DNA of 64,000 bases, from contig JADJYW010000029.1 of assembly GCA_016719605.1 (NCBI GenBank), positions 260,612 to 324,611 of the forward strand, in the 5' to 3' direction. Position 1 is the stretch's first letter. Each line of letters opens with the position of its first letter. The stretch is from Lewinellaceae bacterium (lineage in GTDB: Bacteria > Bacteroidota > Bacteroidia > Chitinophagales > Saprospiraceae). Shown here piece by piece: positions 20,911 through 43,147 of the stretch. The notes below the pieces were generated by a model. That model saw only the letters and a list, made by a program, of their open reading frames with translations. It ran no database searches and was not told where the DNA came from. The position numbers and the translations under genes were made by a program.

Positions 20911-20982
20911 GCCGGATTAGACCAGCGGTAGAGCAGCCGATTCGTAATCAGCAGGTCGAGGGTTCAAATCCCTTGTCCGGCT
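20911..20982 (+). tRNA. tRNA-Thr (anticodon CGU) with three stem mismatches
   Basis: Hand-folded cloverleaf. The acceptor stem gccggat/gtccggc and T arm gaggg-ttcaaat-ccctt are intact. The anticodon loop is ttCGTaa. The D stem gacc/gagc has two mismatches and the anticodon stem gccga/tcagc has one C-A mismatch. Confidence 0.65.
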
Positions 20983-21067: not shown

Positions 21068-21144
21068 CGGGATGTAGCGCAGCCCGATAGCGCGCGTCGT
21101 TCGGGACGACGAGGTCCCAGGTTCGAATCCTGGTATCCCGACCA
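21068..21144 (+). tRNA. tRNA-Pro (anticodon CGG), CCA encoded
   Basis: Hand-folded with all stems intact: acceptor cgggatg/tatcccg, D stem gcgc/gcgc, anticodon stem cgtcg/cgacg with loop ttCGGga, T arm ccagg-ttcgaat-cctgg, and 3-prime acca. Confidence 0.88.
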
Positions 21145-33502: not shown

Positions 33503-33606
33503 TACCGCAGAGACGCAGAGACGCGGAGGGGGGGGGTACCGCAGAGACGCGGAGTTTTTTAATAACTTGACTATCAAAACCTCCGCGCCTCTGCGTCTCT
33601 GCGGTG
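33503..33606. repeat. GAGACGCGGAG-type hairpin element (two direct copies plus one inverted copy, G9 tract) between convergent genes
   Basis: Copies taccgcagagacgcagagacgcggagg, then G9, then taccgcagagacgcggag, then ..., then cctccgcgcctctgcgtctctgcggtg. It probably also acts as a bidirectional terminator. Confidence 0.65.
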
Positions 33607-34412: not shown

Positions 34413-37400
34413 TTAGTTGACCTCCACATGGATTCCTACCAGCACCTCGTCTTCCAGTTCCACTTTTTCGCCGCCGTCCAGGGTGTCGGCCAAAACCAGA
34501 TCCGTAGCCAGCACCTCGGACTTGATGTAGTCGTGGAATTTTTCGACCGCATCCAACAAGGCAGGGTGACGCTCCAGCGTGACGATGACGCGGTCGGTCA
34601 CGTTGAAATTTTTGTCCTTGCGGATGTTCTGGATGCGGTTGACGAGGTCGCGCGCGGTGCCTTCGGCGAGCAGTTCGGGTGTCAACGTCACGTCCAGCGC
34701 CACCGTCAGTTCGCCAGCCGTAGCCGTTTTCCAGCCGGGCAAATCTTCTGTGCTCACGATCATGTCGTCCGGCGTGAGCGTGTAGGTATTGCCGTTGAGG
34801 ACGACTTCCAGTACGCCGGATTTTTCCAATGCACTGATTTCTTCGTTGGAGAAATTGGCGATCAGTGTTGCCGCATCTTTCATGTCCTTGCCGAGTTTGC
34901 CGCCGAGCGTTTTGAAATTTGCCTTGGCGCCTTTTTTCAGCAGGCCCGACGCATCGGTGATGTACTCGATTTGCTTCACGTTGATTTCCGACAGGATCAG
35001 GTCTTTCACGCCGTCCACTTCGGCGATGAACGCCTCGTCGAGCACCGGCAGCAGGATTTTTTGCAGGGGCAGGCGTACGCGCAGTTTTTCCTTTTTGCGG
35101 ATACTCAGCGCCAGCGAGCAAATGCGCTGGGCGTAGTCCATGCGTTTTTCCAGCGCCGCATCCACCTTGGCGGAATCGGGGAGGGTCAGGTCGGTGAGGT
35201 GTACGGAGTCGTGGCGCAGCGGGGTGTTGTGGGCTTTGGCCGCGTCTTTTATCGGTGCAGTCAGGTTGCGGTACAGCCAATCGGCGAAGTGCGGCGCGAC
35301 GGAAGCCATGAGTTGACCGGTCACCAGGAGACACTCGAATAAGGTCTGGTACGCGGCTAATTTGTCTTCCCCCATTTCGCCTTTCCAGAAACGCCGGCGC
35401 GAGAGGCGGACGAACCAGTTGGACAGGTGTTCGTCCACAAAATCCTCGATGGCGCGGCAGGCGCGGGTCACGTCGTAGTCGTCCATGGCCGCGTGGTAAT
35501 CGGCCACGAGCGAGTACAGTTTGGAGATGACCCAGCGGTCGAGCTCGGTGCGCTGGTGATAGGGCAGCACGTTTTGCTCATCCATTTTGAAGCCGTCGAG
35601 GTTGGCGTACAGGGCAAAGAAGTTGTAGGTGTTGTACAGGGTGCCGAACAGTTTGTTGCGCACCTCGGTGATGCCTTCTTCGTTGAATTTCAGGTTGTCC
35701 CACGGGTTGGCGTTGGCCATCATGTACCAGCGGGTAGCATCGGCGCCGTACTCTTCGATGGTCACGAAAGGGTCCACGACATTGCCCTTGGACTTGGACA
35801 TTTTGTTGCCTTCTTTGTCCAGTACGAGGCCGTTGGAGACCACGTTTTTGAAGGCCACCGAGTCGAATACCATCGTAGCGATGGCGTGCAGAGTGTAAAA
35901 CCAGCCGCGGGTTTGGTCCACGCCTTCGGCGATGAAGTCGGCCGGAAAGTTGTTTTTGAAAATTTCCTGATTTTCAAACGGGTAGTGCCACTGCGCGTAC
36001 GGCATGGAGCCGGAGTCAAACCAGACGTCAATCAAATCCAGTTCGCGGCGCATGGGTTTGCCGGAGGGAGAGACGAGGATGATATCGTCAATGTAGGGGC
36101 GGTGGAGATCAGCCTCACCCCCCGGCCCCCTCTCCAAAGGAGAGGGGGAGACGAAGAGTGAATCAGCCCTACTCTCCCCCTCTCCTTTGGAGAGGGGGCC
36201 GGGGGGTGAGGCAAGGACGCGGCGCAAATCGGTCAAAACATCATTTAACGCGTTCATTACTTGCTGATTCGCAAACCGAATTACCCGGAATCCGGCGCTA
36301 TTCAGATATGCTGTCCTCGCTTCATCAAATTCTTTTTGTTCGTCTCTATTGTGGTACTCGCCGTCCACTTCAACAACTAATTTTGCAGAAATGCATGCAA
36401 AGTCAGCGATAAAAGAACCAATCTGGTGTTGTCTGCGGAACTTGAAGCCATCCAGTTTTCGATTGCGAAGTGCTTGCCAAAGCACCTCTTCGGCTTCGGT
36501 CGGCGATTTTCGATTATCTCTGCCGTGTGTTTTTAAAATATGCCAGATTGTTTTATCGCCGGTAAATACGAATTGGGAAAGTGCATCTGCATGATCATCA
36601 TCCGATGAAACCCGAGTTTTGTACGGATTCTCCTGCATCAACCCTGCCGCCACTGCCTTCTCCACCTCTGCCCGCAACTGCTCCACCGACCCGATGCACA
36701 ACTCCTCTTCCGCATCCTCGGTGCGCCAGATGGGCAGCGGTACGCCCCAATACCGCGAGCGACTGAGGTTCCAGTCTTGCAGGTTTTCGAGCCATTGGCC
36801 GAAACGCCCGGTACCGGTGCTGGCGGGTTTCCAGTTGATGGTCTTGTTCAGTTCTGCCATGCGCTCTTTGGCCGCCGAGGCGCGTACAAACCAGGAATCG
36901 AGCGGGTAGTACAGCACAGGCTTGTCGGTGCGCCAGCAGTGGGGATAGGTGTGTTTGTATTTTTCGATTTTGAACGCCTTGTTATCCTCCTTCAGGCGCA
37001 GCGCGATGAGCAGGTCGGTGGGTTTGAAATCCTTGTCTTTTTGCACCTCGGCGGGGTAGTACTCGGACTTGACGAAGCGGCCGCCGAATTCCGGCACCTC
37101 GTCCACAAACTTGCCCTGCCGGTCCACGAGCGGAAAGGGTAGATCGGGCGCTTTTGGATTGGACAAGCCGATGAACGGCACGCCCGCAGCCTTGCTGGCC
37201 CGGAAGTCGTCGGCGCCAAAGTAGGGCGCCGTGTGCACCACGCCGGTACCATCCTCGGTGGTTACCCAGTCGCCGGGAATGACGCGGAAGGCATTGGCTT
37301 CCAGTTCGGGTGTGCTCGCGGCGGGTGTGGGCAGGAGTTGTTCGTACCGGATACCGACGAGGGCGCTGCCTGTGCGGTACGGCAGTTTTTTGTCGCCGAC

Positions 37401-38306
37401 CTTGAAACCGTCAAGCGGCTGCCCTTCATCTTCGGGATTAAAATAGGCTGCCATGCGCGACTTGGCCAGCACCACGCTCACCGGTTGGCCGGTGTAGGGG
37501 CTGACGGTTTGCACCTTGTGGTACTCAATGTTTGGCCCGACGGTGAGGGCTACATTGCTGGGGAGTGTCCAGGGTGTGGTTGTCCAGGCGAGGATGCGCA
37601 CGTCTTCGTCCTTGGCGTCGAACAGGTGCTCGGAAGCGGAATTCCGGACGACTTTGAACATGGCAACTGCCGAGAAGTCGGTGACCTCCTTGTAGGTGCC
37701 GGGCATGTTCAGTTCGTGGCTCGACAGGCCCGTACCCGCCGCCGGACTGAACGGCTGGATGGTGAAACCCTTGTACAGGTACGACTCGCCGGAGGGCGTT
37801 TTTTTATTGTACAATTGCTGGAGCAGCCACCAGACGGACTCGATGTAGTCGTTTTCAAAGGTGATGTACGGGTTGTCCAGATCCACCCAGTAGCCCATGC
37901 GGCGGGTCACGTCGTCCCAGAGGTCTTTGTAGCGCATGACCGTGGTGCGGCAGGCCTGGTTGTAGGCGTCCACGGAGATTTTTTTACCGATATCCTCTTT
38001 GGTGATTCCAAGTTCTTTTTCCACCTGAAGTTCGATGGGCAGGCCGTGGGTATCCCAGCCGCCCTTGCGCTCCACGCGGTAGCCCTGGAGGGTACGGTAC
38101 CGGCAGAAGAGGTCCTTTACCGTGCGGGCCATGACGTGGTGGATGCCGGGTTTGCCGTTGGCAGAGGGCGGACCTTCGTAAAACACGAAAGAGCGGTCGA
38201 CCGGTCGCTGGCTGATGGACTTTTCAAAAATCTTTTCGTCCTCCCAGAACTGGCGGATTTCGGCGTCTATGGAGGGGAGGTGGAGGTGTTTGAATTCGCG
38301 GTACAT
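34413..38306 (-). CDS. ileS: isoleucine-tRNA ligase (type 2) carrying an in-frame ~167-aa foreign insertion
   Basis: FYEGPPSANGKPGIHHVMARTVKD (HIGH region), a CP1 editing region, DLHRPYIDDIIL...VWFDSGSMPY, and NKMSKSKGN (KMSKS). A single 1297-codon ORF. Confidence 0.92.
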   Translation of the reverse strand: MYREFKHLHLPSIDAEIRQFWEDEKIFEKSISQRPVDRSFVFYEGPPSANGKPGIHHVMARTVKDLFCRYRTLQGYRVERKGGWDTHGLPIELQVEKELGITKEDIGKKISVDAYNQACRTTVMRYKDLWDDVTRRMGYWVDLDNPYITFENDYIESVWWLLQQLYNKKTPSGESYLYKGFTIQPFSPAAGTGLSSHELNMPGTYKEVTDFSAVAMFKVVRNSASEHLFDAKDEDVRILAWTTTPWTLPSNVALTVGPNIEYHKVQTVSPYTGQPVSVVLAKSRMAAYFNPEDEGQPLDGFKVGDKKLPYRTGSALVGIRYEQLLPTPAASTPELEANAFRVIPGDWVTTEDGTGVVHTAPYFGADDFRASKAAGVPFIGLSNPKAPDLPFPLVDRQGKFVDEVPEFGGRFVKSEYYPAEVQKDKDFKPTDLLIALRLKEDNKAFKIEKYKHTYPHCWRTDKPVLYYPLDSWFVRASAAKERMAELNKTINWKPASTGTGRFGQWLENLQDWNLSRSRYWGVPLPIWRTEDAEEELCIGSVEQLRAEVEKAVAAGLMQENPYKTRVSSDDDHADALSQFVFTGDKTIWHILKTHGRDNRKSPTEAEEVLWQALRNRKLDGFKFRRQHQIGSFIADFACISAKLVVEVDGEYHNRDEQKEFDEARTAYLNSAGFRVIRFANQQVMNALNDVLTDLRRVLASPPGPLSKGEGESRADSLFVSPSPLERGPGGEADLHRPYIDDIILVSPSGKPMRRELDLIDVWFDSGSMPYAQWHYPFENQEIFKNNFPADFIAEGVDQTRGWFYTLHAIATMVFDSVAFKNVVSNGLVLDKEGNKMSKSKGNVVDPFVTIEEYGADATRWYMMANANPWDNLKFNEEGITEVRNKLFGTLYNTYNFFALYANLDGFKMDEQNVLPYHQRTELDRWVISKLYSLVADYHAAMDDYDVTRACRAIEDFVDEHLSNWFVRLSRRRFWKGEMGEDKLAAYQTLFECLLVTGQLMASVAPHFADWLYRNLTAPIKDAAKAHNTPLRHDSVHLTDLTLPDSAKVDAALEKRMDYAQRICSLALSIRKKEKLRVRLPLQKILLPVLDEAFIAEVDGVKDLILSEINVKQIEYITDASGLLKKGAKANFKTLGGKLGKDMKDAATLIANFSNEEISALEKSGVLEVVLNGNTYTLTPDDMIVSTEDLPGWKTATAGELTVALDVTLTPELLAEGTARDLVNRIQNIRKDKNFNVTDRVIVTLERHPALLDAVEKFHDYIKSEVLATDLVLADTLDGGEKVELEDEVLVGIHVEVN
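36111..36612 (-). mobile_element. in-frame insertion in ileS: DUF559/Vsr-like endonuclease domain plus translated inverted-repeat pair
   Basis: The peptide PTEAEEVLWQALRNRKLDGFKFRRQHQIGSFIADFACISAKLVVEVDGEYHNRDEQKEFDEARTAYLNSAGFRVIRFANQQV matches the DUF559 family pattern. By hand count, G+C is 157/360 for 36241-36600 versus 111/180 for three flanking 60-nt lines. A perfect 37-bp inverted repeat lies at 36114-36150 / 36174-36210. Boundaries are approximate. Confidence 0.6.
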
Positions 38307-39177
38307 GTGGTTCGATTGATTCGATTAGTTCGATTGTTCCGATTGGTTCGATTGGTTTGCGGAATCAGGCCTAATTCAACCTTTTCAAACATTTCGACAA
38401 GCCTGATGCCATCAATCAGTTCAATTTTAGGCGCTCCATCTCGAGTCGCTTCCTTGATTGCTTCCTGAGAAAAAGTACCCGTGGTCATAATAATGCCCTT
38501 CTCGGCACGTCCAATCATGGCATTTCGAAAATCTCCGACTTCTGACCGAGACACCGAGCCTTTGTACCGTTTGCATTGAAACAGCACCTTGAAGGATACG
38601 AACGGGTTGATTTCCAAAGTCCCGTAACCATCAATGCCTCCGTCGTGAGACTTCCCGGTGACTGCAACGTTTTCGAAACCATGCTCCCGCAACAACTCCT
38701 TGCATACTTTTTCAAAGCCCGACGGGCTTAGACGTCGAAGTACCTCAAGTAAATTGGTTGAAAACTCGCGCTCAAAGGCTTCCGGTGTTACCTCTTCCTG
38801 TTCTTTGGATAATTCTTCAACAGATTCGCCTTTTCGGTTGGCTTGGAAAATGGCTACCCATTTCAAAAATATCTTGTGGGCTTCGTCCTCGGTCAAATTT
38901 GTGCTCTTGCCCTTTTCCGTTAATTTCCAAGTGCCACGTTTCGACGAGTCCAGATACCCATCCCAAACCAGATACTGCCTGGCCCACTGAACTTGGTTGT
39001 GAAATCTATTGCCTCCCGACTTAAGGTTTCATCCAGAGTGCTGTCCGGGATTTGCAGTTTTTCCGCAATTCGCTGCGAGACTTCATTAGGCTTGCCGGAA
39101 TCTCCGAGGTCACGGAGCGCATCTAAAACAGGTCCCATCCATTTGACAAATTCTGTCCGTCTGATCTTCTTTGACAT
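38267..39177 (-). pseudogene. mrr: Mrr-like restriction endonuclease (Mrr_N winged helix plus Mrr catalytic domain), one frameshift as assembled
   Basis: ORF 38920-39177 (MSKKIRRTEFVKWMGPVLDALRDLG...) continues in another frame as GNRFHNQVQWARQYLVWDGYLDSSKRGTWKLTEKG, then into ORF 38267-38896. The catalytic core is GKSHDGGIDGYGTL...FQCKRYKGSV...IIMTTGTFSQEA. One base is missing at GG 39025-39026. The region is A+T-richer than its neighbours by eye. Confidence 0.75.
38307..38360. repeat. 9-bp tandem repeat (GTTCGATTG)n, C/A-rich on the ileS coding strand, abutting the ileS start codon
   Basis: The sequence ttcgattgattcgattagttcgattgttccgattggttcgattggtt is read directly, starting 4 nt from the ileS ATG (38306). 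It is translated as NRTNRNNRTNRINRT in the tail of the mrr ORF. Confidence 0.8.
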
Positions 39178-41647: not shown

Positions 41648-43147
41648 TCAATTGCCGCGGCCGCTCCGGCCGCCGCCCGACGACGGAGCCGAACTACGGC
41701 CACTGCCACCACCACTATCGCCACCACTTCGCATGCTGCCACCACTTGACGACCGCTCACTACCGCTGCTGCGGCTGGGGCTATCGTATGAGCGCGTCGG
41801 GCGTTCGTAGGAAGGCTCCGAGCGCCGGCTTGGGCGATCATCCGTGCTGCCACTCGAACGAGGTGACTCCCGACGCGACGGGCTTGGCTCCCGGCTGGAC
41901 GCCTCATCGCGACGAGCCGGACGCTCGGCAGGTGCAGTTTCGCGCGCCGGACGCGTTTCCCGGTTCGGCGTTACTTCACGCGCCGGAGTTGTTTCACGAA
42001 TCGGACGTTCTTCCCGGTTCGGAGTTACCTCGCGCGCTGGGGTTGTTTCACGAACCGGACGTTCTTCCCGGTTCGGAGTTACCTCGCGCGACGGGGTTGT
42101 TTCACGAATCGGACGTTCTTCCCGGTTCGGCGTTATCTCGCGGACAGGACGGCTGTCCGGAGATACTTCCCGGCCCGGATTTGTTTCCCGGCCCGGAGTC
42201 ACGCTACGCTCGGAGCGTGTTGTTTCAGGTGTTGTGGAACGGCGTCCGTCAGGTGCTGTCGTCGGACGAGTTTCGCTGCCGGTCCCGGATCGGTCGCTTA
42301 CGCCGCCTGCCGGGGCGTTTTCCCCGGAAGTGCTCTCAAAGCGTCCGTTCGGGCGGGTGTTTTTTATCTCAATGACCGGCGTGGAAGTTGCTCGGGAGGA
42401 GGCTAAGCGATCTCCACTCGTAGCAGTAGTATTGCTGGCCATGCGTGCATACCCGGGGTTTACTGTTGTGCCCGTACGCCGGACACCCGTGTACGTCTTC
42501 GGGTTATATCCGCCGCCGCCGTTGTTGCCACCGCCATTGTTGTTGTTGTTGTCGTAGTAATAGTTGTTATTCACCCAAACGTTGTTGGGGCAGTGATACG
42601 GATTGTAGCCATTCCACACCCAGTATGGGTCATAGAAATAATTATTCCATACATACGGATTGTTCCAGGTATTCCAGCCCCATGGACGGTTCCAGCCAAA
42701 ACCCCATGTATTGTAACCGGCGCCCCAGTACGGATCATACCCGCCCCAGGTATTCCAGCGGTTAAACCGGTTCCAACGGCGCCAGCGCCAGTAATCGTTG
42801 TAGCCGCCAACGTAGATGGACACGCCCGGCTGGAAGAACGGATCGTACATCCACATATCCACGAACATCGGATCGTAGTAGTCCACCGTCCTGGTTGGGC
42901 GGTGGAAACGACGGATGCGGGAAGAGTACTCATACGCGTAATCGTCCTCCTCGTAGTAGCCGTCGTCGCCCTGATACCGCTGGGTTATTTTACTGTCTTC
43001 GCGGTATGTATTTTCACTATTCGGGGCACTGTATGTGCCATCCGTAGCAGGATCGTAGTACAAGTCGTCCTGCGCCTGAGCAGGTACGCTACAGAACATC
43101 CCTGCTACCAGCAGGAACATTCCCATTAATGACTTCAAGTTTTTCAT
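41648..43147 (-). CDS. secreted low-complexity protein (W/Y/N/G-rich region, RETTPxREVTPNREERP repeats, S/G/R tail)
   Basis: Signal peptide MKNLKSLMGMFLLVAGMFCSVPAQA from ATG 43147 within track ORF 41648..43183. The composition and repeats are read directly from the translation. Confidence 0.6.
   Translation of the reverse strand: MKNLKSLMGMFLLVAGMFCSVPAQAQDDLYYDPATDGTYSAPNSENTYREDSKITQRYQGDDGYYEEDDYAYEYSSRIRRFHRPTRTVDYYDPMFVDMWMYDPFFQPGVSIYVGGYNDYWRWRRWNRFNRWNTWGGYDPYWGAGYNTWGFGWNRPWGWNTWNNPYVWNNYFYDPYWVWNGYNPYHCPNNVWVNNNYYYDNNNNNGGGNNGGGGYNPKTYTGVRRTGTTVNPGYARMASNTTATSGDRLASSRATSTPVIEIKNTRPNGRFESTSGENAPAGGVSDRSGTGSETRPTTAPDGRRSTTPETTRSERSVTPGRETNPGREVSPDSRPVREITPNREERPIRETTPSREVTPNREERPVRETTPAREVTPNREERPIRETTPAREVTPNRETRPARETAPAERPARRDEASSREPSPSRRESPRSSGSTDDRPSRRSEPSYERPTRSYDSPSRSSGSERSSSGGSMRSGGDSGGGSGRSSAPSSGGGRSGRGN
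41935..42150. repeat. 54-bp (18-codon) tandem repeat inside the low-complexity protein gene
   Basis: About four units encode RETTP(A/S)REVTPNREERP(I/V). The DNA units ...cacgaatcggacgttcttcccggttcggagttacctcgcgcg... repeat nearly identically. Confidence 0.8.

Follow-up and report, generated by a model that had tools for sequence, protein, structure and literature searches.

EDxHD (Vsr-like) homing endonucleases have been described with I-Bth0305I as the prototype (PMC3239194) and in the form of 'fractured gene' endonucleases (PMC2677866), and their genes reside in group I introns or inteins or are free-standing between the halves of split inteins. Another comparable case is the ShiLan domain of actinophage DNA methylases, an in-frame insertion with homing-like evolution and without detectable intron or intein, which is predicted to loop out and hides, in another reading frame, an HNH endonuclease with its own start and stop codon (PMC11855218). 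Here we analyzed a 64-kb stretch of DNA from a Lewinellaceae bacterium (contig JADJYW010000029.1, positions 260,612 to 324,611; the whole stretch is referred to as the window), in which the gene ileS, encoding isoleucyl-tRNA synthetase (IleRS), carries an additional in-frame block of 167 codons with a nuclease domain of the DUF559 family. We interpret this block as probably being one copy of a non-splicing, homing-endonuclease-like selfish cassette. Elements of this kind are widespread and apparently undescribed: the literature on DUF559, PF04480 and related concepts, with subscription-only papers outside of the coverage, contained no description of in-frame DUF559 cassettes.

Results

An In-Frame Nuclease Domain in Isoleucyl-tRNA Synthetase

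The IleRS of the window comprises 1297 amino acids (aa), whereas insert-free orthologues have 1133 aa, and its nearest homologues belong to the Saprospiraceae of the phylum Bacteroidota. The match to the NCBIfam model TIGR00392 (ileS, E=6e-280) falls into two stretches that are split at the insert. The additional block is contiguous and in frame and covers aa 566-732 (36111-36611), which bears out an earlier note on this DNA, made from the sequence without database searches, that had described one contiguous excess of about 167 aa in an open reading frame (ORF) of 1297 codons. Its parts are, in this order, a 13-aa acidic linker, a 120-aa DUF559 domain and a 34-aa peptide encoded by a palindrome (Table 1). 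The G+C content at third codon positions (GC3) is 0.41 in the insert and its nuclease vs. 0.77-0.78 in host ileS, and the hand counts of the same note (157/360 G+C for 36241-36600 and 111/180 for the flanks) proved to be exact. As the GC3 gap is repeated in four other hosts of the same insert type (class A, see below), the insert has not been ameliorated to the host. Furthermore, the ileS frame alone is open across the block, the other five frames hold 2-14 stops, and 0.015% of the shuffles of the A+T-rich part of the block are stop-free, in agreement with the initial view that such an open frame is improbable by chance.

The suspected DUF559 module was recovered by Pfam, as PF04480 matches aa 592-698 with E=5.4e-35 and 120-124 bits (cut-off 20.6) over profile positions 4-108 of 109. 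NCBIfam PRK09767 matches with E=3e-25, which is below its equivalog cut-off, and free-standing DUF559 proteins share 45-58% identity with the insert. D635, E646, D648, H652 and D661 occupy columns that are invariant or nearly so, both among 11 inserts of diverse hosts and across 116 DUF559 proteins. A profile of the 11 inserts retrieved from the Protein Data Bank (PDB) the entries 3hrl (E=6e-31) and 3r3p, the catalytic domain of I-Bth0305I (E=1.9e-6), with the latter alignment running through the E-x-D-G-x-x-H...D region. In the predicted model of the insert only, the core reaches a predicted local distance difference test score (pLDDT) of >90, and the nuclease scores 80-98 across both models that were made, i.e. 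of the insert and of the whole protein. Foldseek placed 3hrl (template modeling score, TM, 0.88) and 3r3p (TM 0.77) above the Vsr structures 1cw0 and 1vsr, which appear lower in the list. Profile and predicted structure identify the domain as a Vsr-fold nuclease that shares homology with the I-Bth0305I catalytic domain, and it would presumably be active as a nuclease.

Selection was analyzed for six class-A genes by the Nei-Gojobori method. The DNA of these genes was taken individually; a metagenome scan yielded the insert-bearing loci L089 and L092 among the matches listed. In the host parts of IleRS, dN/dS (the ratio of non-synonymous to synonymous substitution rates) is 0.06-0.07 for the window vs. 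P0001, and the mean pN/pS (the corresponding ratio of uncorrected proportions) is 0.15-0.19. The DUF559 domain has a dN/dS of 0.07, like the host, and a mean pN/pS of 0.24, with dS being saturated. The low dN/dS indicates that the protein sequence is maintained, beyond mere freedom from stop codons, and the nuclease domain is under purifying selection.

No Hint/intein domain was found in the window IleRS by the Pfam scan, and the junctions (KTR/VSS and GEA/DLH) show neither the N-terminal Cys/Ser nor the C-terminal His-Asn plus Cys/Ser/Thr of inteins. A permissive Rfam scan of 35500-37300 detected no family of group I or group II introns and only sub-threshold miRNA-type matches on the hairpin. 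The absence of intein or intron signatures, first noticed from the sequence, thus extends to Pfam, Rfam and the junction residues. In addition, the block junctions differ among the homologues in a comparison of 120 IleRS segments.

Concerning the position in the host, alignment places the insertion point upstream of KMSKS, between residues ~486 and 489 of the IleRS of T. thermophilus (1ILE), in a stretch of variable length among the solved IleRS structures. At both IleRS sites known to carry such inserts (see below for the second, after MPYAQWHYPF) the insert takes the place of a few loop residues. The linker and the palindrome-encoded segments have a pLDDT below 35-50 in both models; in detail, the acidic linker VSSDDDHADALSQ remains below 50 and shows elevated dN. 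From the whole-protein AlphaFold model, which is poor (pLDDT 54.6, predicted TM score 0.31), only the local confidence pattern was used. This pattern would fit a folded domain on flexible tethers. Since CCN and GGN codons are mutual reverse complements, one arm of the palindrome encodes a Pro/Ser/Leu-rich and the other one a Gly/Glu-rich peptide.

Gain and Loss at the ileS Site

To compare the site we used the segment between WNLSRSRYWGVPLPIW and DLHRPYID of 120 IleRS homologues (best matches), in which five allelic states were distinguished. The naive state comprises 36 aa (...EKANAALGLSQSVPA; the naive ileS fragment at the site reads ...EKANAALGLSQSVPADLHRPY...) and was found in 58 of the 120 best matches, so that the segment, as expected from the earlier reading, is generally missing in orthologues. 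Class A, to which the window copy belongs, consists of AVAAGLMxxNPY, linker, DUF559 and hairpin. Class B contains another DUF559 lineage that is bracketed by two repeat arms (NPTPNPSPxGEG ... SPSPAGEGLGVGF). The remaining states are solo palindromes without nuclease (P0007-9, P0112) and short in-frame remnants such as NPYKEEGGEA in P0010, which keeps only the last ~20 nt of the 3' arm. On a neighbor-joining tree of the IleRS host parts these states are interleaved, with different states in many sister pairs. None of the proteins closest to the window IleRS (92-93% identity) is class A; they have solo, remnant and naive alleles.

The comparison also revealed that the segment upstream of the block is associated with the insert. 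All occupied, solo-palindrome and remnant alleles have the left flank AVAAGLMQENPYKTR in the place that NAALGLSQSVPA takes in naive alleles. At the DNA level this flank has no similarity to the naive 36 nt, although the encoded segment is similar in length, and it falls within the exchanged tract of the allele pair described below. As these 15 codons travel with the insert, the foreign tract is somewhat longer than the limits 36111-36612 given by the earlier note, which hold for the block itself (36111-36611) and not for the left boundary, located about 15 codons further upstream.

The insert-linked flank, A[VI]xAGxMxxNP[YF], includes an invariant Met that is absent in naive alleles (window 36612-36656). 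This Met could be structural or an internal start codon.

The clearest case of an exchange is the pair of P0011 (class A, locus L006) and P0042 (naive, L007), which share the same gene neighborhood. A 650-nt tract separates two stretches in which their DNA is 100% identical, 385 nt on its upstream and ~2.2 kb on its downstream side. Besides the insert, this tract includes diverged ileS sequence, ~75 nt of it upstream and ~55 nt downstream of the insert. Since P0047, the next relative, is likewise naive and has flanks like those of P0042, parsimony favors gain of the cassette with co-conversion of the flanks. The cassette thus moves between alleles by homologous recombination together with ~50-75 nt of ileS flank per side. 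The 650-nt tract is the footprint expected of homing, and ordinary recombination after DNA uptake would look alike. Other pairs are read as losses: P0034/P0063 and P0055/P0117 have 99% identical backbones apart from an in-frame deletion between the repeats. Copies have thus been lost repeatedly in relatives by in-frame deletion between repeats, giving solo palindromes and short remnants. The pairwise identities of insert and host are only partly correlated, with a Spearman coefficient of 0.56 for class A and 0.71 for class B and with strong outliers such as P0004/P0011, in which the hosts are 90% and the inserts 62% identical.

Several homologues deviate in other ways. At the insert site, a 151-aa non-DUF559 segment replaces the whole region in P0019, and 77 aa are inserted in P0058. 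The IleRS P0013 is longer by ~48 aa near residue 309. P0069 (1751 aa) and P0104 (1439 aa) are extended at the C-terminus by OLD/AAA_15-type and HATPase_c domains, possibly as a result of fused gene calls.

A Perfect Palindrome in the Coding Sequence

Both repeat arms of the window copy are located directly 3' of the nuclease and form a perfect hairpin with arms of 40 nt that are 100% complementary, so that the C-terminal peptide of the block is indeed the translation of a perfect inverted repeat, as had been recognized before. The 5' arm GCCTCACCCCCCGGCCCCCTCTCCAAAGGAGAGGGGGAGA includes a mini-hairpin (CCCCCTCTCC-AAA-GGAGAGGGGG). According to the DNA alignment with naive, remnant and solo alleles, the last base of the 3' arm is the exact right boundary, and homology resumes right after it.

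In all six class-A lineages examined, hairpins with perfect stems of 37-52 bp are present, with loops that are variable in length (18-48 nt) and sequence. Variation across these lineages affects 7 of 37 palindrome pairs, and all of these are double Watson-Crick changes with neither G-U pairs nor mismatches (0 each); the loops of the mini-hairpins within the arms co-vary between the two arms, too. The dS of the palindrome is 0.27 vs. ~1.6 elsewhere, and its pN/pS is 1.15, which indicates that the constraint acts on the nucleotides and not on the peptide. As RNA, the hairpin would have -105 kcal/mol (z -12.5), but the absence of wobble pairs points to complementarity at the DNA level rather than to RNA structure. 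Quasi-palindrome correction is a templating between closely spaced arms. Either such templating between the close arms or selection acting on a hairpin or cruciform of the DNA could keep the hairpin perfect. The one solo palindrome examined at the DNA level is imperfect, as are the repeats of class B, which are widely spaced.

Two further arrangements of arms were observed. P0056, a class-A IleRS of 1398 aa, has palindromes on both sides of the nuclease, the upstream one being complete and accompanied by four tandem 5'-arm peptides (ASPPGLLSRGEGVAL...); the tandem arm peptides show that the repeats can amplify in frame. P0019 and P0053 carry a palindrome arm in frame at a second IleRS site, RRRFWK[G]-SPLP[IV]GEG.G.G-..EDK, where the window has RRRFWKGEMGEDK. 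From this single arm it follows that the GC-rich arms also insert alone, like Rickettsia palindromic elements (RPEs).

Related Cassettes Reside in Many Conserved Genes

An exhaustive HMMER search of 1.84 billion representatives gave 26,105 DUF559 matches, and many of the best 150, which were looked at, are long proteins with an embedded domain. The IleRS-hosted copies were seen by this exhaustive search; a word-indexed protein search with the insert returned free-standing DUF559 proteins only. In species-representative genomes at least 590 DUF559 loci were found, and among the 80 closest genomic relatives 75 are embedded in long ORFs whose frame runs hundreds of codons on both sides. The identities of the hosts rest on hidden Markov model (HMM) searches and not on ORF clustering, as the clusters merged MetH with LeuRS. 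Among the aminoacyl-tRNA synthetases the hosts are LeuRS (at least two sites), IleRS (a second site after MPYAQWHYPF), MetRS and ValRS. Metabolic and cell-envelope hosts comprise MetH (two sites), adenine deaminase, chorismate synthase, MnmE, the PurL amidotransferase domain, MurF-Alr, CinA, SpoIID, GH31 and epimerases. RecG, an AddA/RecB-like helicase, UvrA and an SF1 helicase represent DNA repair and helicase functions, and DNA methyltransferases and restriction enzymes are further hosts.

The elements are usually arranged in the order host, Pro-rich arm, linker, DUF559, linker, Gly-rich arm and host. Class-B copies and most copies in other hosts share a design of imperfect terminal inverted repeats of 20-48 nt, in which the left arm consists of (G)ACCTCACCCC, a 2-3-nt spacer, CCCCTCTCC, a loop and GGAGAGGGG, and the right arm is the mirror image with the end GGGGTGAGGT(C). 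The arms of the window copy hold the outer (CCTCACCCC) and inner (CCCCTCTCC..GGAGAGGGG) motifs, and the same motifs flank DUF559 in unrelated hosts. The terminal motif CCTCACCCC / GGGGTGAGG is correctly oriented beside 28-29 of 81 copies vs. 13 occurrences in the 368 kb of remaining locus sequence. Exact flanking inverted repeats of at least 11 nt were found at 37 of 76 loci and in none of 66 host-gene controls. The host-gene control (0/66) is the valid one, because the loci share the repeat motif and a cross-locus control is therefore inflated.

Cassettes in different genes are highly similar, with 72-76% identity between MetRS and adenine deaminase copies and 71% between MetRS and CinA copies. 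In one Saprospiraceae metagenome-assembled genome (MAG) the IleRS and helicase cassettes are reciprocal nearest neighbors with a common repeat variant. The fact that cassettes in different genes can be as alike as orthologous ones argues for movement between genes and not between alleles alone; judged from these sequences, related cassettes have jumped into many other conserved genes. Many free-standing DUF559 copies in Bacteroidota and other phyla bear palindrome-encoded peptides at their ends. Phages or plasmids as vectors found no support, as only three distant phage matches and 39 distant, free-standing plasmid matches were obtained. In the window block Pfam revealed no transposase, DUF559 being the sole encoded domain.

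Several individual findings concern the family. In locus L082, a Chitinophagales MAG, a free-standing DUF559 gene is flanked by a perfect 110-nt inverted repeat whose ends bear mini-hairpins of the CCCCTAAAGGGG type, the region starting ~260 nt upstream of the DUF559 match and extending to 144 nt downstream; this arrangement may be an autonomous, non-embedded form of the element. The top match of the exhaustive search, P0241 (377 aa), has three tandem DUF559 domains. The small free-standing DUF559 proteins P0129, P0130, P0210 and P0136 are named 'methionine synthase' or 'adenine-specific DNA-methyltransferase' by the Joint Genome Institute (JGI), most likely by transfer from MetH or methylase genes with embedded cassettes. 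The label of the insert-bearing IleRS at NCBI is 'class I tRNA ligase family protein'.

Other Features of the Window

Directly upstream of ileS on the minus strand (38267-39177), a Mrr-type restriction endonuclease is split into two ORFs (Table 1) in a region of low G+C content (0.43-0.50). The Mrr_cat ORF crosses a 9-nt tandem repeat (38308-38357, 5.6 copies) that is read as TNRTNRNNRTNRINRT. The split Mrr is probably a frameshifted or decaying foreign gene. A second inverted repeat (33504-33529 / 33580-33605; ACCGCAGAGACGCAGAGACGCGGAGG) has 26-nt arms that are 96% complementary and 50 nt apart. It lies between convergent genes for an M29 peptidase and a LOG-family protein and has no sequence relationship with the ileS palindrome; it may represent a terminator or some other repeat element. 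A tandem repeat at 41957-42142 consists of 3.4 copies of a 54-nt unit with 91% matches and a nested periodicity of 18 and 36 nt. Two tRNA genes (20911-20982 and 21068-21141) are the sole matches above the Rfam gathering threshold in the whole window.

Table 1. Positions of ileS, of the parts of the inserted block and of the split Mrr gene in the window.
Feature	Position	Strand	Remarks
ileS, type-2 isoleucyl-tRNA synthetase (host gene)	34413..38306	minus	ORF of 1297 codons including the insert; TIGR00392
Insert-associated left flank AVAAGLMQENPYKTR, aa 551-565	36612..36656	minus	comparison of 120 IleRS segments
Acidic linker VSSDDDHADALSQ, aa 566-578	36573..36611	minus	length and sequence vary among class-A alleles
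DUF559/Vsr-fold (EDxHD-type) endonuclease domain (predicted), aa 579-698	36213..36572	minus	without own start or stop codon
D635, within the ADF-encoding codons	36399-36407	minus	invariant family column
Catalytic core motif E646-V-D648-G-E-Y-H652	36351..36371	minus	invariant family columns
5' arm of the inverted repeat (gene orientation) GCCTCACCCCCCGGCCCCCTCTCCAAAGGAGAGGGGGAGA	36173..36212	minus	40 nt; encodes ASPPGPLSKGEGE
Loop between the arms	36152..36172	minus	21 nt; encodes part of SRADSLFV
3' arm of the inverted repeat, end ...GGGGGGTGAGGC	36112..36151	minus	40 nt; encodes SPSPLERGPGGEA
Mrr_N ORF	38920-39177	minus	85 aa
Mrr_cat ORF	38267-38896	minus	209 aa; E=3e-31; overlaps the ileS start codon

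Discussion

The best explanation for the block, to which we assign a probability of roughly two in three, is that it represents one copy of a non-splicing selfish cassette similar to homing endonuclease genes. Such a cassette would be composed of a Vsr-fold nuclease frame without start and stop codon and of GC-rich terminal repeats that contain hairpins, and it would sit in a variable surface loop of IleRS ahead of KMSKS. It would be transcribed and translated together with the host protein, and the nuclease would fold as an independent domain on disordered linkers so that the synthetase stays functional. A cut of an unoccupied or palindrome-only allele by the nuclease would then trigger the transfer, and invasion, maintenance and decay would follow each other in a cycle as in inteins and intron-borne homing endonuclease genes. 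The comparison with homing parasitism achieved without a splicing element, which the earlier note had drawn, is strengthened by the patchy distribution, the exchanged tract, the purifying selection and the homology to I-Bth0305I. In a wider sense the cassettes could form a distinct class of start- and stop-less endonuclease cassettes in Bacteroidota and a few other phyla, which are translated inside housekeeping proteins, spread by nuclease-triggered gene conversion and occasional jumps and are the equivalent of endonuclease-bearing inteins with structural tolerance replacing splicing; for this generalization we see the chances of being right and wrong as evenly balanced.

A number of points weigh against the interpretation as a selfish cassette. 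We infer the nuclease activity, the cleavage of the naive site and the fusion protein from sequence, and as the model of the whole protein is poor, the placement of the insert relative to the active site and the tRNA rests on the alignment to solved structures. The 650-nt tract could come from ordinary recombination after DNA uptake without any endonuclease, and purifying selection would be equally expected if the domain benefits the host. Within the 64-kb window no second copy of the nuclease or the palindrome was found, and the nearest copies outside of ileS are only ~50-60% identical to the window copy, which gives no sign of a very recent transposition. Furthermore, the placement of both arms on the same side in class A is unlike a canonical unit flanked by terminal inverted repeats (TIRs), and at neither IleRS site was a target-site duplication found, a few host codons being replaced instead. 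Target duplication and transposase domain are both missing, and a Vsr-fold nuclease alone is not known to have strand-transfer activity, so that it would not by itself explain the jumps to new genes.

The alternative that survives best, although we regard it as unlikely, is a palindromic element, comparable to RPEs or to MITEs (miniature inverted-repeat transposable elements), that is moved in trans by another enzyme and tolerated in frame, and in which DUF559 is cargo or a secondary invader and does not drive the mobility. The solo palindromes at the same site (P0007-9, P0112), the single-arm insert at the second IleRS site (P0019, P0053) and the free-standing DUF559 genes that also adjoin such palindromes are in line with this idea, and so is the variable position of the nuclease, in the loop between the arms in class B and beside the arms in class A. 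However, the solo forms are explained equally well as deletion derivatives, and the solo copy examined at the DNA level is imperfect, whereas the six nuclease-linked hairpins are perfect. Besides, strong selection acts on the nuclease, a candidate transposase was not seen, and the 64-kb window holds no other copies of the palindrome.

Slightly less credit, in our opinion, is due to the assumption that DUF559 is a domesticated accessory domain, acquired as a nuclease or for nucleic-acid binding, that serves the cell, e.g. in defense, repair or regulation, and is selected at the level of the host. Its dN/dS of 0.07 is as low as that of the essential host, the catalytic residues are invariant, insert and host distances are positively correlated, and the hosts include several restriction or modification enzymes, for which a functional nuclease domain is conceivable. 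A selfish cassette is nevertheless favored, as presence and absence differ between near-identical strains, remnants and solo palindromes document repeated loss of the domain without loss of the gene, and the same cassette occurs at unrelated surface sites of >20 unrelated enzymes. Moreover, GC3 is not ameliorated, and it is not evident what role the conserved terminal repeats would play for a host domain.

We consider it very improbable that the block is an intervening sequence which is removed from RNA or protein by an unrecognized mechanism, e.g. through cleavage and ligation after the repeats have paired or as an atypical intein, yielding a mature IleRS without it. This possibility was raised by the earlier note, and a very stable RNA hairpin (-105 kcal/mol) as well as the class-B repeats, which bracket the nuclease and could bring the ends together, would speak for it. 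In the window copy, however, pairing of the arms cannot loop out the nuclease, because both are located 3' of it, and the pairs without G-U point to a constraint on DNA and not on RNA. Intein blocks, intein junction residues and Rfam introns are absent, and both the junctions and the length of the linkers are freely variable. In every allele including the remnants the host frame is open, which excision would not need, and the selection in the host frame together with the predicted disordered Pro/Gly linkers disfavors removal.

An assembly chimera or a dead ileS backed by a second copy would agree with the sharp compositional break and with the absence of the exact window protein from a 15-billion-sequence collection, but this reading is next to negligible, as homologous inserts at the same codon position occur in >25 independent assemblies (NCBI, JGI, ENA, Logan), the frame is intact with the host parts under strong purifying selection, and in the P0011/P0042 pair the gene is syntenic and single in its neighborhood. 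The intron, intein and assembly-artefact readings were rejected on the grounds set out above.

If the interpretation as a selfish cassette is correct, homing-type selfish genes can colonize essential genes without splicing by means of a compact domain on flexible linkers in a permissive loop, which would be a third strategy beside introns and inteins. It would account for dozens of oversized housekeeping enzymes in Bacteroidota (IleRS, LeuRS, MetRS, ValRS, MetH, RecG, UvrA and others) and for the associated misannotation, and it would give the very large DUF559 family of unknown function a testable biological role. The insertion sites would furthermore provide a natural catalogue of permissive positions and of linker design for protein engineering, and the perfect 40-bp palindrome in an essential coding sequence is a handy system for studying replication, repair and translation through such structures.

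Comparison With Described Elements

Terminal inverted repeats as in TIR transposons and MITEs are present in class B and in most other hosts, and the window copy differs in having both arms 3' of the nuclease. Neither a target-site duplication nor a recognizable transposase of such elements was found. Free-standing DUF559 proteins, such as the E. coli YcjD type (PRK09767) and NGO0050 of N. gonorrhoeae (PDB 3hrl), belong to the same Pfam family with the identities given above, but they have their own start and stop codons, are not embedded in a host protein and are uncharacterized in function.

The RPEs, reportedly described by Ogata et al. in 2000, resemble the ileS element in that a palindrome is in frame and translated within ORFs; the solo palindromes (P0007-9, P0112) and single arms (P0019, P0053) are particularly alike. 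They are mentioned in PMC1779305 and in a MITE review (PMC10969869). In contrast to the ileS palindrome, which is coupled to a conserved nuclease ORF as its terminal repeat or linker, RPEs encode no enzyme; in addition, the ileS palindrome is unrelated in sequence and GC-rich, and its host phylum is Bacteroidota. With the ShiLan domain the block shares a non-splicing insertion in which the host frame stays open. The ileS nuclease, however, is in the host frame with the other frames closed, and nuclease family, hosts and terminal repeats differ.

EDxHD endonucleases have the nuclease fold and the conserved catalytic residues in common with the cassette (3r3p, E=1.9e-6, TM 0.77). Both are found in conserved sites of housekeeping or DNA-metabolism genes, and the patchy distribution and flank co-conversion are typical of homing. 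The closest sequence relative of the insert, though, is the uncharacterized DUF559 protein 3hrl and not I-Bth0305I, and no long N-terminal DNA-recognition region as in I-Bth0305I was identified in the insert. Whereas the known hosts of EDxHD endonucleases are restored by splicing, the window block has no splicing element and its nuclease is an internal domain in the host frame. Finally, like inteins, the block is in frame in a conserved site of an essential protein, would be translated with its host, bears an endonuclease domain and seems to pass through a cycle of invasion, decay and loss. It fails every intein feature tested (Hint domain, N-terminal Cys/Ser, C-terminal His-Asn plus Cys/Ser/Thr) and shows no sign of removal at the protein level, and the tolerance of the host apparently comes from flexible linkers and surface-loop sites instead.

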